From a virus (Duplodnaviria; Caudoviricetes): a DNA stretch of 64,000 nucleotides. The translations under genes were made by a program, and so were the position numbers. Positions 4,919-47,175 of the stretch are shown piece by piece. Location of the stretch: the IMG/VR virus record IMGVR_UViG_3300031867_000015, positions 1 through 64,000 of that record. One strand, written 5' to 3'. Under the pieces are notes generated by a model. The model had not been told where the DNA came from, did not search any database, and saw nothing but the letters and a program-made list of their open reading frames with translations. Within the stretch, counting starts at the first letter, position 1. Every line of letters starts with the position of its first letter.

Positions 4919-5323
4919 TTAATCAACTATAGTTGGTACACTTGGTAGCCACATATGAGGATTAAAGTTAATCTCATAATGATATTCATTTACTCCTGTT
5001 GTTTCTAAGTCCTCTACAATATATGTTACATTATCACTCAGACCTATTATCTGTTTATTGTACATACCCTTCTGATATTCAGTAATAATTTCAAGCTGAT
5101 TGTCTGCTGTATCTGCCATGATAGATGAACGTCCTGTCATCTGAAAAAGGGTATCTCCTGTAATACAATCAATTACGGTTATTCTTCTTACGCAATTGAA
5201 ATTGTCAGCTTCTTGTGCAAGATTTACTCTTACTCTCTCAGCTTCGTTACAACTTGTTAAAGTAAATACTGTCATCATAGCAACGAAAGCCATTGTTATC
5301 ATTGTAATTATTCTTCTCATCAT
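4919..5323 (-). CDS. phage lipoprotein
   Basis: signal peptide with LTSC lipobox; EADNFN..RRITVI..IGLSDNVTY pattern. Confidence 0.8.
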   Translation of the reverse strand: MMRRIITMITMAFVAMMTVFTLTSCNEAERVRVNLAQEADNFNCVRRITVIDCITGDTLFQMTGRSSIMADTADNQLEIITEYQKGMYNKQIIGLSDNVTYIVEDLETTGVNEYHYEINFNPHMWLPSVPTIVD

Positions 5324-11951: not shown

Positions 11952-12656
11952 TTATTCAATTACTGTTATTGTTATCGGAACTCTACCTGCATTTAAGAAT
12001 CCCTCTGGTATTTCTGAATTATCATAAAAATAAAAATCAATTGTATTATAATTACCTACACCGCAATCATCTACACGAAACGTTCCGTTCATGTATTCAG
12101 ATTCAATATAAAGTAATGTGCCAAAATCAAAATAATCACTGGCTACCGAGTAACCTGAGATTAACTGATTTCCACTTGCACCACAAGGATGATATGTGTA
12201 ACCCATTGATGTAGCGGCATAATAAGTCATATCCCAATATCCACTTAAAGGTTCTGTCTTTGTGATTGGCTCAACGATAATTGGTTCTGTCCTTGCAACC
12301 ACTTCTGTTTCTATTGGATATACAACTGACTCTATGATTGAATCAGTCAATGTACTCATCATCTGAGTTGTTGTTGGGTTCATCTTCGCAATTATCGCAT
12401 CCGTAATAGTTGTCGTATTCGTTGTCGTATGGTTCTTTGCAAACTGTGGTATAGTAACCCCTACTGTCGTAGTAGTCATAGTAGGTTCGCCAACTGTAAC
12501 ACTTTGGGACATACTTGCTTGTGAATTTGACTGACATTCCTTTTCACTCCTTATCGCTTTTGGACATTTTGTACACGATGTTAGTGCTATTATCATCAAC
12601 ATAGCACAGCTTAATGATTTAAAACGATTAATAAATACCACTCTCCAAATATACAT
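11952..12656 (-). CDS. exported/lipoprotein with Thr-rich linker and 3D cell-wall hydrolase domain
   Basis: LTSC lipobox-like, Thr-rich linker, TYY..VASD..GTLLYI..VDDCG..IDFY. Confidence 0.75.
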   Translation of the reverse strand: MYIWRVVFINRFKSLSCAMLMIIALTSCTKCPKAIRSEKECQSNSQASMSQSVTVGEPTMTTTTVGVTIPQFAKNHTTTNTTTITDAIIAKMNPTTTQMMSTLTDSIIESVVYPIETEVVARTEPIIVEPITKTEPLSGYWDMTYYAATSMGYTYHPCGASGNQLISGYSVASDYFDFGTLLYIESEYMNGTFRVDDCGVGNYNTIDFYFYDNSEIPEGFLNAGRVPITITVIE

Positions 12657-42210: not shown

Positions 42211-42330
42211 GAACCATTTGTCTTGTAATAAGACTTCTTTCTTGCTTCAACGTCCTCGCAACCTACTAACTCCACAAGCGTAAATTCCGATAATTCCTAC
42301 CGTACTAATTGTTTATTAGACTGCTAATAA
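42189..42330 (-). ncRNA. TnpB omegaRNA (scaffold plus guide); 5' end approximate
   Basis: IS605-type right end directly after tnpB: gtacggtaggaattatcggaatttacgcttgtggag..gaagcaagaa..ggttcaa, then flank-derived guide. Confidence 0.7.
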
Positions 42331-43428
42331 TCCTTGTTTAAGAATATTCTTAGCCGCATTAATATCCCTATCATGTTTTGCACCGCACTCAGGACAAGTC
42401 CATTCTCTTACAGATAAATCCTTAGTCTCAGGATTTATACAACCACAACAACTACACGTTTGACTACTTGGACAAAACCTATCTATCTTTGAAATAGTCC
42501 TACCATACCAATCAGCTTTATACTGCAACATCCTTACAAACTCAGACCATGAACAATCTGATATGGACTTTGCAAGGCAATGATTTTTAACCATGCCTGA
42601 TACGTTCAAATCCTCTAAACAGATTACATCATATCTACGAATTAATTCAGTAGAGAGTTTTTGTAAGAAGTCTGTTCGCTGATTAGTTATCTTGTCCCAT
42701 GCTCTTGCTAATCTGATTCTTGCTTTGTCCCAATTGTTACTACCCTTTGACTTTCGGGATAGCTGTCTTTGTAACATAACAAGTTTCTTTTCTGATTTGG
42801 CAAGATACTTGGGACTTGATATTTTATCTCCATTTGATGTGATAGCAAAATCTTTAATACCGAGGTCAATGCCTACATTGCAATCAGTCCTTGTAAACGG
42901 TTCGTAGTTCTCTTGCTCTACTAAAACAGAACAATAATATTTACCACTTGGAGTTTGACTTATTGTAGCTGATTTGATTTTACCGTCAAACTTTCTGATT
43001 CCTCTTACTTTAACCCATTTGAGTTTAGGAAGTTTTATTTTGCGATTATCAAAATTAACTTCTATTGTAGGTCTGCCAATATAATTACAATTTGTTTTAT
43101 AAGACTTGCGATTATTTTTCTTAGACTTAAACTTCGGGAATCCTTTGTGTTCCCTAAAGAACTTTTGATATGCCGAATCGAGATTAATAACAGCATTATC
43201 TAAAGCAAATTTATCTACTTCTTTTAACCATTCGTACTCAGATTTGAGTGTGCGATTTTTGTAATTATTGACATCAATTTTAGACAAAGTTATTTCTTCT
43301 GTTTTGTACTTATTTATTTTATATGCTAAACATTGATTATACACAAATCGTACACATCCAAAAGTTTTCTGTATAAGTAACTCTTGTTCTTTATCTGGAT
43401 AAAGTCTGAATTTATAACCTTTTAACAT
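42316..43428 (-). CDS. tnpB: RNA-guided endonuclease TnpB (IS200/IS605 OrfB)
   Basis: [48 protein letters not shown]; RuvC D-E-D intact; no tnpA in window. Confidence 0.95.
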
Positions 43429-44374
43429 ACTTTTCCTTTTCTACCTCAAAATATTTCTTTATAACATTAAGACCGAGATTCATATTCATATCTATATTCT
43501 TTTTAATACTTTCAAAATCCCCACAATAACGACTTGTTGTAACAAGATTGCTGTGGTTTAAATCCCAGTTCAAGAACTGCATAGCCGCTGTGTGAGCCTG
43601 TCCCATATCGCCATACATTTCTTGGAAAAGCTGTTCAACTTTATTGGAATATAATTTTCTCAATGAATGGGTAGCGTATCTTACTTTACCATCTGTGCAG
43701 TTTTCTCTACCTTTAAGCTGTATACCCAAATCATCTACTAACTTTTTTGACATAAGATTATAGATTCTTGAATAACTTAATGGGTCAAGAATTTTATTTC
43801 CGTTCTCATCAAGTTCATACTGGAAGTCACCATTAATTTTTAAAGGTTTACCAGTCTTAGGGTCTTTAAGTTTGCGATAGTTTTTATATCCACCGTCAGA
43901 AATAATGAGCCAATCAAGCGGAGAAAAATCACCACTCCATGTTACCATAAGTACACACATCTTTATAGCATCATTGATATACATAGTACGTGGCTTTCCT
44001 GTTTTCAATTCTGAGAATAAACAGCTTTCACGGAACTTGTTATGCTCATTTAAAAAATCTATCCTCTTGATTATTCTTGCATCGGAGCATCTTACTCCCC
44101 AGTTTGCCTGTGTTACAAAGAATAATGCATCTCTGAATCCTTTATAACCACCTTGTTTGAAACAGGTTTCAAGTACCTGATTAAACACTTCTTCTGGCAA
44201 AGAATCCATGCCTATCTTTTCAGCCCTACGTTTTTCAAGTTCTTTGATTCTCTGATAATCTCCGTCCTGTATGTTTACATCGGGAACAAGGTCATCGAAA
44301 TCAATATCATCATTACCTAATCGGTCTGATATGTCAATTACCTGACATTCGTTTTCTTTTAATTTATGTATCAT
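43412..44374 (-). CDS. tyrosine recombinase/integrase family protein
   Basis: GVRCSD (R), ELKTGK (K), HSLRK (HxxR), LNHS (H), TSRY (Y). Confidence 0.85.
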
Positions 44375-44390: not shown

Positions 44391-44517
44391 TTGACTTTAT
44401 GGGTTATTCGTGTTATAATAAAAACGATAAAACTTATCGTTTCTATGTTTAGATTATATCATAGAACACGATAATTGTCAAGTGTTTATAGACATAAATT
44501 TTATCATGTTCTATGAT
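44391..44517. promoter_or_regulatory. face-to-face promoters with inverted operator pair
   Basis: + TTGACT-17-TATAAT at 44391-44419; - TTGACA-17-TATAAT at 44481-44453; atcatagaacacgataa / ttatcatgttctatgat inverted pair. Confidence 0.7.
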
Positions 44518-44552
44518 ATGTATTTGTTTATTTTCTACAAAGGGGTGATTGT

Positions 44553-44768
44553 ATGCCGAGAAGTGAAGCACAGAAAAGAGCAGACAAAAAATACATTGCT
44601 AAAACGTATAAGCGTTATGCTATTAATACAAGACTTGAATACGTTCCGACAATCGAAAAGTATATGAGTGAACACAACTTTACATCTTCATCATCTTTCT
44701 TTAATACCGCTGTCAAATATATTATTGAAAATAATATAGATATAAGTGGGATAAAAGAAAAAGAATAA
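44553..44768 (+). CDS. small DNA-binding protein (RHH/antitoxin-like)
   Basis: SEAQKRADKKY..S.FFNTAV pattern; only credible + strand gene among the early genes. Confidence 0.65.
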   Translation: MPRSEAQKRADKKYIAKTYKRYAINTRLEYVPTIEKYMSEHNFTSSSSFFNTAVKYIIENNIDISGIKEKE

Positions 44769-44776
44769 TTGTCTTA

Positions 44777-44812
44777 CCCTCAGTCAAATGACTGAGGGAT
44801 TTATTTTTTTTT
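44777..44812 (+). terminator. intrinsic terminator
   Basis: ccctcagtc-aaat-gactgaggg plus T tract. Confidence 0.8.
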
Positions 44813-45359
44813 AATACGAATCTTCCATATCACACAGTATATCACTCTGAGTTATAGGCTTATCCCAAATAGTTTCATTGATAGATATTACGAACTTTGC
44901 CGTTTCTGGATAGCTGTCTCTTGAACATTCGATGAAATGATATACGTCCTCAATGTTATATGCTTCATAGTTCATGGGCTTTATTTCCGTCCCCACTTCT
45001 CCCTTTGGAATACAGTACGCATTAAATGTCAATGTCACAACTGGCATCTGCTTTTCGTGTGAACTGTTATAAGCGTATCGTGTAAGGATATTACTTGCAT
45101 CTACGGCAGTAACCATTCCATCATAATTTGTGTCTGCAAGCCAACGCTGTGTTGATGTGAACGAGCGTTCATTCCCAACTGAAATACTCGCATATTCAGT
45201 AAGTACCATTGAAGCATCAATACCATCCACTCTACCATCAAGATTAACGTCATATCGGAGTGTCCCCATATCATGCTGTCTTGCGTGTGTGGTCATTGGT
45301 GTTGCCATACCTATTGCAAGCATGGCTGATAAAATCATTGTTGTTTTTTTCATAATCAT
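44811..45359 (-). CDS. secreted type I dockerin domain protein
   Basis: signal peptide; YDVNLDGRVDGIDASMVLTEYA and ADTNYDGMVTAVDASNILTRYA duplicated Ca-binding repeats. Confidence 0.88.
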   Translation of the reverse strand: MIMKKTTMILSAMLAIGMATPMTTHARQHDMGTLRYDVNLDGRVDGIDASMVLTEYASISVGNERSFTSTQRWLADTNYDGMVTAVDASNILTRYAYNSSHEKQMPVVTLTFNAYCIPKGEVGTEIKPMNYEAYNIEDVYHFIECSRDSYPETAKFVISINETIWDKPITQSDILCDMEDSY

Positions 45360-45381
45360 TTCTCCTTTAATTAATATTGTT

Positions 45382-47175
45382 TTAAGCGTTAATGCTTAGT
45401 AAAGCCTGTGTGTTGTTTATTCCACCAAGATAATACTTTCTATTACCTATTATTTTGTCATACTCTCTTTCGCCTGAGAAACTATCAACAACTTTCTTTT
45501 CTTCCTCATTCATCTGCTTGTATGTCTTTGTACCAAAATCAAAGGGTAGCCATCCACGATTCTTTCCTACATAGATATTATATTTCTGAATTAGTTCTGG
45601 ACAGTTGAAAGTTATATGAACACTACCCTTTAAGTACAGATTGATGGTAAAGTATTTAAGAGGAATGTTCTTTGTAACTCCCTTGTCTACGTACTCCTTC
45701 ACTGTACTGTAAATATCTACGTCAGCGGTCATGTTTCCATCAAAGTAATTGAGAATACGCTCTATGTCGGAAAGTCTTTCATTTAACTTGTATAAATCCA
45801 AGTGACCAAAGATTGAATCATAAAGACCATAGAACGGCATAATAACCTTCTTGCCAATCTTGTGACCAATGTTAGTTTTCCATGCGTTATAAAGGTATTT
45901 AGAGTTATCTGAACAAGCATAATCAACAGTCATTTTATCAAACATCTTTTCAATCTCATTCTCAATGCCTGTTTTTACCTTGCTTTTCATTTCCACAAGT
46001 AGATTCTTGATATTAAATTCGGAGAAGTCATACTCTGAAAATGTCTCTACTTTCGCCCTGTACTGTTCCTGTAACTTAGTTGTGAGGTTTCCAGTGAACT
46101 TTGGATTTGAAAACAGTGCCCTCCAATACTTGTAACGGACTGCCTTGACATATTTATTAATGGTCATCTTATCTTTTCCATAGCCATCTGTAAGCTGTAT
46201 AATGGGTGTGGGGTATCTATCTTCTGTATCAAAAGAACTTGAAAGATAAGGTTTCATTCGTTCAAAAGAATTAATAAGTTCAATTCCTGATTTGATTTCC
46301 ACATTGTATTTATTAACAACTGACTTTAAATAATCTGTAACATCAAGTGCAGTTATTTCTTCTGCCGTAGGTTCTTCGTAGTGTTCTTCCTTTTTGAGTT
46401 TATCGAATATAGAATCATCATTATCATTAACACTCATAGGAATGTTTACATAAACCATAGCAACTTCTACATCTGTCTGACGTTCTGCGTTATTAAATTC
46501 TCCGCTATAATATTCTATATTTGCATTATACTCATTCAGTATCTTGATAAGTTCTTTGCGTGTCTCTGTGTAGGGATTTCTGATAGTCTCCGCATTAAGT
46601 AAGCACACTATCTGTCCTCCATACTTCTGAATTTCCAATGCCTTTAACAAATGCTTATCTCCATTACTGAATGGTGGATTCATAATGATAACATTGTACT
46701 GCTTGTATGCTGTAAAGGTAAGAAAATCATCATGAACAAGATGCACGTTTTTTCCCTTTACTTCTTTACGTTCTGTGTCAATCGCTCTCAGTCTTGAATT
46801 GTCTGGTTCTGGAACAGGAACATACTGTCTAAGTTCTTGATTATAATACTTATAATTTTCACTCCATGAATCAAAGTCATTGTACTGCTTTGTTATCTTC
46901 TTCTTTTCGTCAAGCAGTCTATTAGAATTTTCCTCAGAAAAAGTATACAGAAATATCTGTCTCAGATTGTTGTCAATCTCTATGCAGTCTATATCAAGCT
47001 TTCCATCAGTTTTGCGATTAAGGTATCTTACTATATCTCCCTTGCCTACTGATGGTTCAAGAACCGTATTAACATAATTCCAATTCACCTTTGAATACAT
47101 CATCTGAATAAGATTCTCAGGTGTAGGATAGAACTCTGATGTATTTTTATCCTCTACATAATTAACTATCTGCAT
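45382..47175 (-). CDS. adenine methyltransferase with DUF4942 domain
   Basis: EFYPTP, LEPSVGKG, IIMNPPF; C-terminal YFTINLYLKGSVHITF. Confidence 0.85.
   Translation of the reverse strand: MQIVNYVEDKNTSEFYPTPENLIQMMYSKVNWNYVNTVLEPSVGKGDIVRYLNRKTDGKLDIDCIEIDNNLRQIFLYTFSEENSNRLLDEKKKITKQYNDFDSWSENYKYYNQELRQYVPVPEPDNSRLRAIDTERKEVKGKNVHLVHDDFLTFTAYKQYNVIIMNPPFSNGDKHLLKALEIQKYGGQIVCLLNAETIRNPYTETRKELIKILNEYNANIEYYSGEFNNAERQTDVEVAMVYVNIPMSVNDNDDSIFDKLKKEEHYEEPTAEEITALDVTDYLKSVVNKYNVEIKSGIELINSFERMKPYLSSSFDTEDRYPTPIIQLTDGYGKDKMTINKYVKAVRYKYWRALFSNPKFTGNLTTKLQEQYRAKVETFSEYDFSEFNIKNLLVEMKSKVKTGIENEIEKMFDKMTVDYACSDNSKYLYNAWKTNIGHKIGKKVIMPFYGLYDSIFGHLDLYKLNERLSDIERILNYFDGNMTADVDIYSTVKEYVDKGVTKNIPLKYFTINLYLKGSVHITFNCPELIQKYNIYVGKNRGWLPFDFGTKTYKQMNEEEKKVVDSFSGEREYDKIIGNRKYYLGGINNTQALLSINA

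Follow-up and report, generated by a model that had tools for sequence, protein, structure and literature searches.

A phage-restricted family of dockerin proteins carrying a variable cargo domain, from probable phages of Ruminococcus

The dockerin gene and its product

The window analyzed here is a stretch of 64,000 nucleotides, the first 64 kb of the 115,128-bp IMG/VR virus record IMGVR_UViG_3300031867_000015 (CheckV completeness 100%), and the subject of this report is a gene on its minus strand that encodes a small dockerin protein. The protein is composed of a predicted signal peptide, a complete duplicated dockerin, and a short C-terminal domain, called here the cargo domain. An earlier note, made from the letters of the sequence, had described these three parts, and each is borne out: the open reading frame (ORF) contains all of them, Pfam recognizes the dockerin (E 1.7e-8), and the cargo is conserved and folded in the structural model. 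The source genome is a phage. A leftward block at about 3.1-60.4 kb encodes a DnaE-type DNA polymerase, NrdD, RecJ-like and ExoV-like nucleases and a DnaB-like helicase, and a rightward block from 64 kb carries late genes, the reverse transcriptase of a diversity-generating retroelement, and an M23 peptidase. The dockerin gene sits in the leftward arm among the replication genes, far from structural genes, so the note was right to call it phage-encoded and to place it in the early region.

The coding sequence extends over 44811..45353 (minus strand), with its stop codon at 44811-44813. Two ATG codons lie in frame at the start: one at 45359 gives the ORF 44811-45359 (minus strand) and 182 aa, the other at 45353 gives 180 aa. 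A ribosome-binding site, AGGAGA at 45361..45366 (minus strand), stands 2 nt before the first of these, and its GGAG core 8 nt before the second. The Atlas record begins at residue 3; because homologs and the calls of other gene finders begin at MKK, the product is probably the 180-aa form that starts at 45353. Residue numbers in this report follow the coordinates given, such that residues 1-26 correspond to 45282..45359.

Those 26 residues (minus strand) form a predicted Sec signal peptide, with a KK pair, a hydrophobic core, a proline at -6, and T-H-A ahead of the predicted signal peptidase I cut. Most of residues 1-27 have a predicted local distance difference test score (pLDDT) below 50 in the AlphaFold model, and in the 13-member alignment A5 residue A26 is invariant and P21 nearly so. 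From these features, the protein would be exported through the Sec pathway.

Dockerin type and candidate cohesin partner

The dockerin module, residues 33-102 (45054..45263, minus strand), contains two symmetrical repeats that are identical at 12 of 21 positions. The 115-kb genome contains no other dockerin. A search with the Dockerin_1 hidden Markov model (PF00404), which the earlier note had named as a check, gives 34.9 bits against a cutoff of 22.9, matching residues 36-90. The two Ca-binding loops, D37-D48 (45216..45251, minus strand) and D76-D87 (45099..45134, minus strand), had been quoted correctly in that note. Both are 12 residues long and have the full set of Asp or Asn at positions 1, 3, 5 and 12 (D37/N39/D41/D48 and D76/N78/D80/D87), and each is followed by a helix in the AlphaFold model (46-60 and 85-100). 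Recognition positions 10 and 11, as defined in PMC12270676, are Gly46-Ile47 in the first loop and Ala85-Val86 in the second.

Among solved structures, the best matches found by phmmer against PDB are all from Ruminococcus flavefaciens: the ScaH dockerin 8AJY (E 8e-13), CttA 4IU2/4WKZ (E 4e-3), and the group-2 dockerin 9GVB (E 6e-3). Only distant clostridial type I dockerins follow. No dockerin labeled as R. flavefaciens group 1 or 5 was matched at E <= 10; the search allows no judgment on groups 3 and 6. In structural comparison the ScaH dockerin again leads. The phage dockerin aligns to the ScaH dockerin with 47% identity, a Z score of 9.0, and a root-mean-square deviation of 1.2 Å over 75 residues, as compared to Z scores of 6.5 for Clostridium thermocellum type I, 6.0 for R. 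flavefaciens group 1, and 5.0 for group 5. The ScaH, CttA and group-2 dockerins all bind the ScaE cohesin, and ScaE is the anchoring scaffoldin attached to the cell wall (PMC5301203; PMC12270676).

The definition of group-4 dockerins includes internal two-fold symmetry of the repeats (PMC2930009), and the phage dockerin fits that definition in its symmetrical repeats, its 12-residue loops, and its short linker. Group-1 signatures (VxIMQxxxNP, ALxIQKxxL, and a linker of 37-45 aa) are missing from its sequence. It resembles the group-4a dockerin of the ScaH-ScaE complex 8AJY, its best match in both sequence and structure, in having two symmetrical 12-residue Ca loops joined by a short linker; the CttA XDoc structures 4IU2/4IU3 and the group-2 dockerin 9GVB were compared as well. 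In the helices of the form DA[ST]xxLxxYA, hydrophobic contact positions are the same in the phage and group-4a dockerins, and five of the positions that contact CohScaE in the group-2 complex, hydrophobic or polar (L17, T18, Y20, A21, S24), are retained in both phage repeats. Unlike the group-4a dockerins, the protein is encoded by a phage and has Gly-Ile and Ala-Val dyads in place of Gly-Arg. Unlike group-4 dockerins in general, it shows no evident extra fourth helix; in the model the chain enters a cargo beta-strand directly. Assignment to a dockerin group, which the earlier note had also proposed as a check, therefore succeeds in part. Group 4 is nearest, by the ScaH match and by symmetry, but the Gly-Arg dyad at positions 10/11, typical of proven ScaE binders though not stated for all 40 group-4 members, is absent. 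For this reason we label the module group-4-like (4a-like) and do not assign it ScaE specificity. A ScaE-type cohesin is the leading candidate partner, because among solved structures the phage dockerin comes closest to those group-4 dockerins of R. flavefaciens that attach there.

The cargo domain

Residues 103-182 (44814..45053, minus strand) make up the cargo domain, which has a beta-beta-alpha-beta-beta arrangement in the AlphaFold model and is aligned across the family in A1 and A4. The domain proper spans about 75 aa (residues ~103-178), with pLDDT above 90 in the full-length model. That model is one compact unit, with a mean pLDDT of 85 and a predicted template modeling score (pTM) of 0.76; the cargo alone, with a shallow alignment, was modeled poorly (pLDDT 64). 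E137 is nearly invariant across the family and shows no variation in A1, A2 and A7, which are smaller alignments. T109 and F112 are conserved, and Y95, which lies inside the dockerin, is invariant.

The cargo domain has no match in Pfam, PHROG, NCBIfam or PADLOC, no neighbor in the ESM Atlas, and no paralog elsewhere in the phage. As a fold family it is unclassified. Fold searches with the whole model and with the cargo alone return a flat list of unrelated small folds, rejected as signs of homology. For the cargo the best score is that of anastellin (Z 5.9), with AcrIF9 (5.4), the RuBisCO small subunit (4.2), kinesin fragments and ERH also in the list.

Mean pairwise identity across the family is 48% in the dockerin and 19% in the cargo. 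By this measure the cargo domain evolves much faster than the dockerin.

A family restricted to phages

An exhaustive phmmer search with the protein produced 1,853 matches, mostly ordinary dockerins. The cargo domain is present in 44 of the 153 proteins returned by two sequence searches. All 44 are 112-217 aa long, and none among the 153 longer than 217 aa has it; the failure to find it fused into longer proteins is weak evidence. The family includes at least 40 clusters at 50% identity. Pfam Dockerin_1 matches all 42 aligned members, with architecture and Ca ligands intact.

Every family context that can be read is a phage region, of early or replication type. The member on contig L002 is surrounded by methyltransferases, a single-stranded DNA-binding protein, and recombination genes, and the member on L099 lies between a gene that is DnaD loader-like or like that of phosphoadenosine phosphosulfate (PAPS) reductase and a methyltransferase gene. 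On L100, the gene overlaps by 4 nt the end of a gene for a Rha/antirepressor-type regulator and is upstream of primase-helicase genes; this position places it in the early lytic operon of a temperate phage, not beside the integrase. The gene is retained: 36 copies at 90% identity or above occur on contigs that come from several sources and reach 115 kb in length. Both complete relatives of the phage carry a family member, and one of these is a 113-kb genome with terminal repeats and a polymerase 80% identical to that of this phage.

Searches of 161 genomes of the genus that includes R. flavefaciens FD-1, one of them scoring 21 candidates in each genome, found neither a full-length member nor the cargo domain, and the cargo was not found in the 79 best bacterial dockerin-motif loci. 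A tblastn search with the protein has no match among GenBank phages (INPHARED), and a pattern scan built from alignment A2 finds L001 only; alignment A1 is too diverse for patterns to be drawn from it. UniProt contains proteins of uncultured gut phages that were named "Dockerin type 1" by automatic annotation, A0A8S5M688 (Myoviridae sp. ctCL221, 211 aa) and A0A8S5NQH0, the former 39% identical to the phage protein over 62 aligned columns; both are database entries for which we found no study. Our search of open-access papers for dockerin proteins of Ruminococcus phages found none, only one unrelated case from an archaeal virus.

The closest bacterial parallel by architecture is a class of chromosomal R. 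flavefaciens proteins, SIGN-Doc-UNK, in which a signal peptide is followed by an N-terminal dockerin and then a cargo. These are listed in group 4a (PMC5301203 supplement), and the group-4a dockerins of FD-1 carry non-enzymatic "unknown" cargos and attach them directly to the cell surface. The bacterial cargos differ from that of the phage and are larger. One example, an FD-1 protein of 401 aa (L005:8007-9212), has a dockerin 53% identical to that of the phage, with Ala-Val dyads. It was observed to have a signal peptide, the dockerin, and a DNA/RNA non-specific endonuclease-like region, and would be a surface-docked nuclease.

A rival explanation is that the gene is an inert passenger, a piece of some host dockerin gene that was captured not long ago and does nothing for the phage. 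Phages do take up fragments of host genes, and this dockerin clearly descends from the Ruminococcus repertoire. The best bacterial dockerin, however, is just 57-60% identical, and the at least 40 diverged clusters keep architecture and Ca ligands intact, as noted. When dockerin modules are placed in a tree, the 41 sequences of the phage family cluster, needing 5 label changes as compared to 34.8 with shuffled labels, and a single phage-family clade is not rejected by the approximately unbiased test (p-AU 0.435) in this poorly resolved tree of 71 columns. The 36 near-identical copies, moreover, were assembled independently. We regard the passenger explanation as close to refuted.

One subfamily differs at its N-terminus. 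Four members (P0005, P0007, P0008, P0009) and the product of L002:3891-4481 lack a plain signal peptide and begin instead with some 25 aa that form a CxxC...CxxC zinc-ribbon-like motif, after which come a hydrophobic stretch and a site resembling AxA. One member matches Pfam DZR_2. The arrangement suggests a membrane-tethered, N-in form of the dockerin-cargo protein.

A recombinase-linked slot

The dockerin gene lies just upstream of a gene for a divergent tyrosine recombinase (43412..44374, minus strand) with HxxR...Y motifs, which matches phrog_216 (E 4.6e-9) and no Pfam model. The same pairing is found in four lineages, namely this phage, G163, L002 and L106/L107, with gaps between the two genes that range from 15 nt to about 0.8 kb. 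Homologs of the recombinase occur at L002:4626-5561, L106:2325-3263 and L204:2061-3020. A pattern scan built from the recombinase alignment gave no match, even at loci where the gene is known.

Contents of the locus do not travel together. G163 and L106 have dockerin proteins that are 68% identical and recombinases that are 39% identical, while for L002 and L106 the corresponding values are 37% and 92%. G163 and this phage share polymerases 80% identical, with dockerin proteins at 34%. The identities show the dockerin and recombinase genes reassorting independently, and the cargo has been exchanged between phages whose neighboring recombinases are 92% identical. On present comparisons the locus looks like a cassette slot, with cassette-like reassortment of its contents. 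A conserved slot with fast-changing content is expected of a gene involved in conflict or in host specificity. No att-like or inverted repeats were identified at the slot. An invertible promoter or shufflon was considered and set aside, as no convincing inverted repeats flank the dockerin gene or its upstream region.

One reading builds on the slot itself: phages of cellulosome-bearing ruminococci would have a dedicated, fast-diversifying cassette, always beside the tyrosine recombinase, that plugs into cohesin sockets of the host and lets the phage remodel the cell surface while it infects, either blocking the anchoring cohesin, so that neither cellulosome nor CttA is mounted and fiber is released, or masking a scaffoldin receptor. 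We consider it rather unlikely. If it were true, phages would directly modulate fiber degradation in the rumen, and the slot would be an integron-like exchange point for surface effectors.

Around the slot, the recombinase gene has a promoter with full sigma-70 consensus (12/12) at 44481-44453 (minus strand). The promoter of a facing ORF scores 11/12 (plus strand). This ORF, convergent with the dockerin gene (44553..44768, plus strand; 71 aa), has a near-consensus promoter at 44391-44419 and a weak match to DUF6290 (E 0.037), and is possibly a ribbon-helix-helix regulator. A 19-nt inverted repeat (44456-44474 and 44501-44519, 95% complementary) overlaps both back-to-back promoters (44391-44519) and looks like an operator switch. 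At its 3' end the recombinase gene overlaps one for a TnpB-like transposase (42316-43428, minus strand; phrog_506, E 4e-140).

Probable host

The host is probably a Ruminococcus, judging by relatives of both the dockerin and the phage itself, an assignment with good though indirect support. The motif DAS[ML][VI]LxEYA occurs in 246 stretches, 226 of them confirmed, in a set of 185,579 species, each represented by a single genome. A Ruminococcus label is attached to 70 of the 79 best motif loci, mostly from R. flavefaciens and from metagenome-assembled genomes of herbivore guts. With ScaH as the closest solved structure, this upholds the view in the earlier note that the DAS..YA pattern is of the R. 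flavefaciens type. Three genomes of the FD-1 genus contain collinear relatives of a 20-kb stretch of late genes, at 33-52% amino acid identity. That note had also held that a host lacking cohesins would speak against its idea; Pfam finds cohesins in 157 of the 161 genomes of this likely host genus, so that for this genus the objection falls away. A host link by CRISPR spacers was tried and rejected: in the single 20-kb segment examined, matches of 33-38 nt are imperfect, and the one that was inspected is not part of a repeat array.

Transcription, lifestyle and position in the genome

Upstream of the dockerin gene lies a DNA methyltransferase gene (45382..47175, minus strand) with methyltransferase and DUF4942 regions, identified by Pfam, PHROGs and PADLOC. 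The gap between the two genes is 22-28 nt, and a promoter scan found no strong promoter-like site upstream of the dockerin gene inside the methyltransferase gene, the best scoring 9/12. Because of the short gap and the lack of a strong site, the two genes are probably co-transcribed. Directly past the dockerin stop codon a terminator scan finds a GC-rich hairpin (44777..44798). On the plus strand its score is that of a terminator serving the convergent ORF, and its T-run on the minus strand is poor; it probably ends the dockerin transcript also, which for the minus strand we infer.

The right end of the record, beyond the window (112881-115117), is shared with metagenome contig L100 (11-3112) at 61-96% amino acid identity, mostly 90-96%. 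Contig L100 carries a canonical integrase and a different member of the dockerin family. The phage record itself appears to end inside an integrase-like gene. The shared right end and this gene make the phage probably temperate. The first 127 nt of the record are repeated exactly at 110107-110233, and the record is probably slightly incomplete or permuted.

A temperate phage might use the protein for lysogenic conversion. Made from the prophage, it would alter the surface of the lysogen, which might then adhere, capture nutrients, or be shielded from some factor of the host or of protozoa, and it would not serve in conflict between phages. Besides the probable lifestyle, the gene has its own hairpin at its end and lies in an accessory or mobile region with the methyltransferase, the recombinase and the TnpB-like gene. 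Expression from a prophage fits less well with the best upstream promoter-like site reaching only 9/12 within the methyltransferase gene, and the L100 member is in the early lytic operon, away from the integrase. We consider lysogenic conversion improbable.

Position in the genome also bears on a role in the virion or its assembly, in which a cohesin-like module carried by the phage particle itself would receive the dockerin, so that the protein decorates virions. No cohesin was found in the phage by Pfam, nor by phmmer with the FD-1 proteins ScaE, ScaH, ScaC and ScaA. A divergent phage cohesin could escape the Pfam model, which is insensitive: it gives the ScaE cohesin of R. flavefaciens FD-1 (L197:1324-2316, G001:C10) only 22.1 bits, below cutoff, so that Pfam-negative results for ruminococcal-type cohesins in phages mean little. 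The gene, however, lies in the replication/early arm, far from structural genes, and the predicted Sec signal would send the protein out of the cell, while virions assemble in the cytoplasm. Such a role is highly improbable.

Proposed function

We tentatively favor an explanation in which the dockerin anchors a fast-evolving phage effector on a surface cohesin of the host, most likely for superinfection exclusion or receptor masking. Inside a Ruminococcus host, the protein would be made by the phage, probably from the leftward transcript shared with the DNA methyltransferase, and exported by Sec. The Ca-dependent dockerin would then attach to a cohesin already on the host surface, the likeliest being a wall-anchored ScaE-type cohesin or a close relative. 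On this proposal the dockerin is an anchor only, and the fast-evolving C-terminal domain would be the working part at the cell surface, where its target would most likely be either the particles of other phages or some variable component of the surface. Its purpose could be superinfection exclusion, receptor masking or protection, or saving progeny from loss on debris.

The alternative that deserves most attention, in line with the hijack idea of the earlier note, is that the dockerin itself is the effector, a plug that occupies the anchoring cohesin or another scaffoldin cohesin, keeps partners of the ScaB/CttA type off new sockets, and thereby masks a receptor or loosens the infected cell's cellulosome and its hold on fiber. 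The C-terminal domain would then merely lend the dockerin stability, in the way of the X-modules of ScaB and CttA; such support of group-4 dockerins by X-modules is established (PMC5301203). The dockerin is indeed the better-conserved half, its nearest solved relatives bind the anchoring cohesin, and the compact whole model together with the poor cargo-only model fits a domain that leans on the dockerin. A mere stabilizer, though, would not be expected to hold a near-invariant glutamate and yet be swapped between near-identical phage backbones, and many group-4 dockerins function without an X-module. Cohesin-dockerin pairs, once formed, are very tight, so a plug could compete only for newly exported cohesins, and that a scaffoldin is the receptor of this phage is an assumption. 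We judge the plug somewhat unlikely. A tethered cargo, which the earlier note had listed as a possibility beside receptor masking and displacement of enzymes, is favored over a pure plug because the cargo is always present, has conserved residues, and evolves faster than the dockerin.

Several observations weigh against the tethered effector as proposed. Where proven ScaE binders have Gly-Arg at positions 10/11, the Arg forms a salt bridge, and its mutation in a group-2 dockerin cut ScaE binding about 100-fold (PMC12270676). The phage dockerin has Ile47 and Val86 in place of the position-11 Arg, and most dyads across the family read AV, AI or SV, while a few members have GR; the cohesin partner may for these reasons not be ScaE. 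Seven dockerins of R. flavefaciens FD-1 are nearer to the phage dockerin than is ScaH. The nearest has 57% identity and identical Gly-Ile/Ala-Val dyads, and the remaining six are of Ala-Val or Gly-Val type. The one 20-kb phage segment tested has no CRISPR-spacer match, and the host is itself inferred. The timing of expression is deduced from gene position, and exclusion is proposed purely by analogy, because the cargo domain has no informative structural neighbor.

The analogy is to small phage proteins held at the cell surface. Llp of phage T5 is a lipoprotein that blocks the FhuA receptor, and Ltp of the Streptococcus phage TP-J34 is a lipoprotein that blocks DNA injection. Like these, the dockerin protein is proposed to be a small exported phage product held at the surface by a generic anchor and bearing a small effector domain. 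Unlike these, its proposed anchor is a dockerin-cohesin joint rather than a lipid. No similarity to known exclusion proteins (Llp, Ltp and Sie types) was found, either as a PHROG, PADLOC or NCBIfam match or as an informative structural neighbor.

Dockerins as such are well known; the novelty lies in the phage-restricted family, its cargo domain, and the recombinase-linked slot. Cohesin-dockerin pairing organizes the cellulosome, and its R. flavefaciens version is the most elaborate known. If phages of this species do maintain a diversified family of exported proteins made to exploit the pairing, viruses would join the players that edit the cellulosome-bearing cell surface, and the family would provide a natural set of small dockerin-cargo proteins whose specificities can be read with existing cohesin arrays. 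Whether the cellulosome or its anchor is a battleground or a receptor for rumen phages becomes a testable question.

Other surface-related genes

Two ORFs in the window, at 4919-5323 and 11952-12656 (both minus strand), have lipoprotein-like leaders that end in L-T-S-C. Their products are candidate surface lipoproteins and, as such, alternative candidates for superinfection exclusion. Beyond the window, a protein of the tail-fiber region (105356-106462 of the record; L092:5356-6462) has a match to a BspA-type leucine-rich repeat (LRR_5, E 7e-6, below cutoff), a module often present on those surface proteins of R. flavefaciens that bear dockerins.

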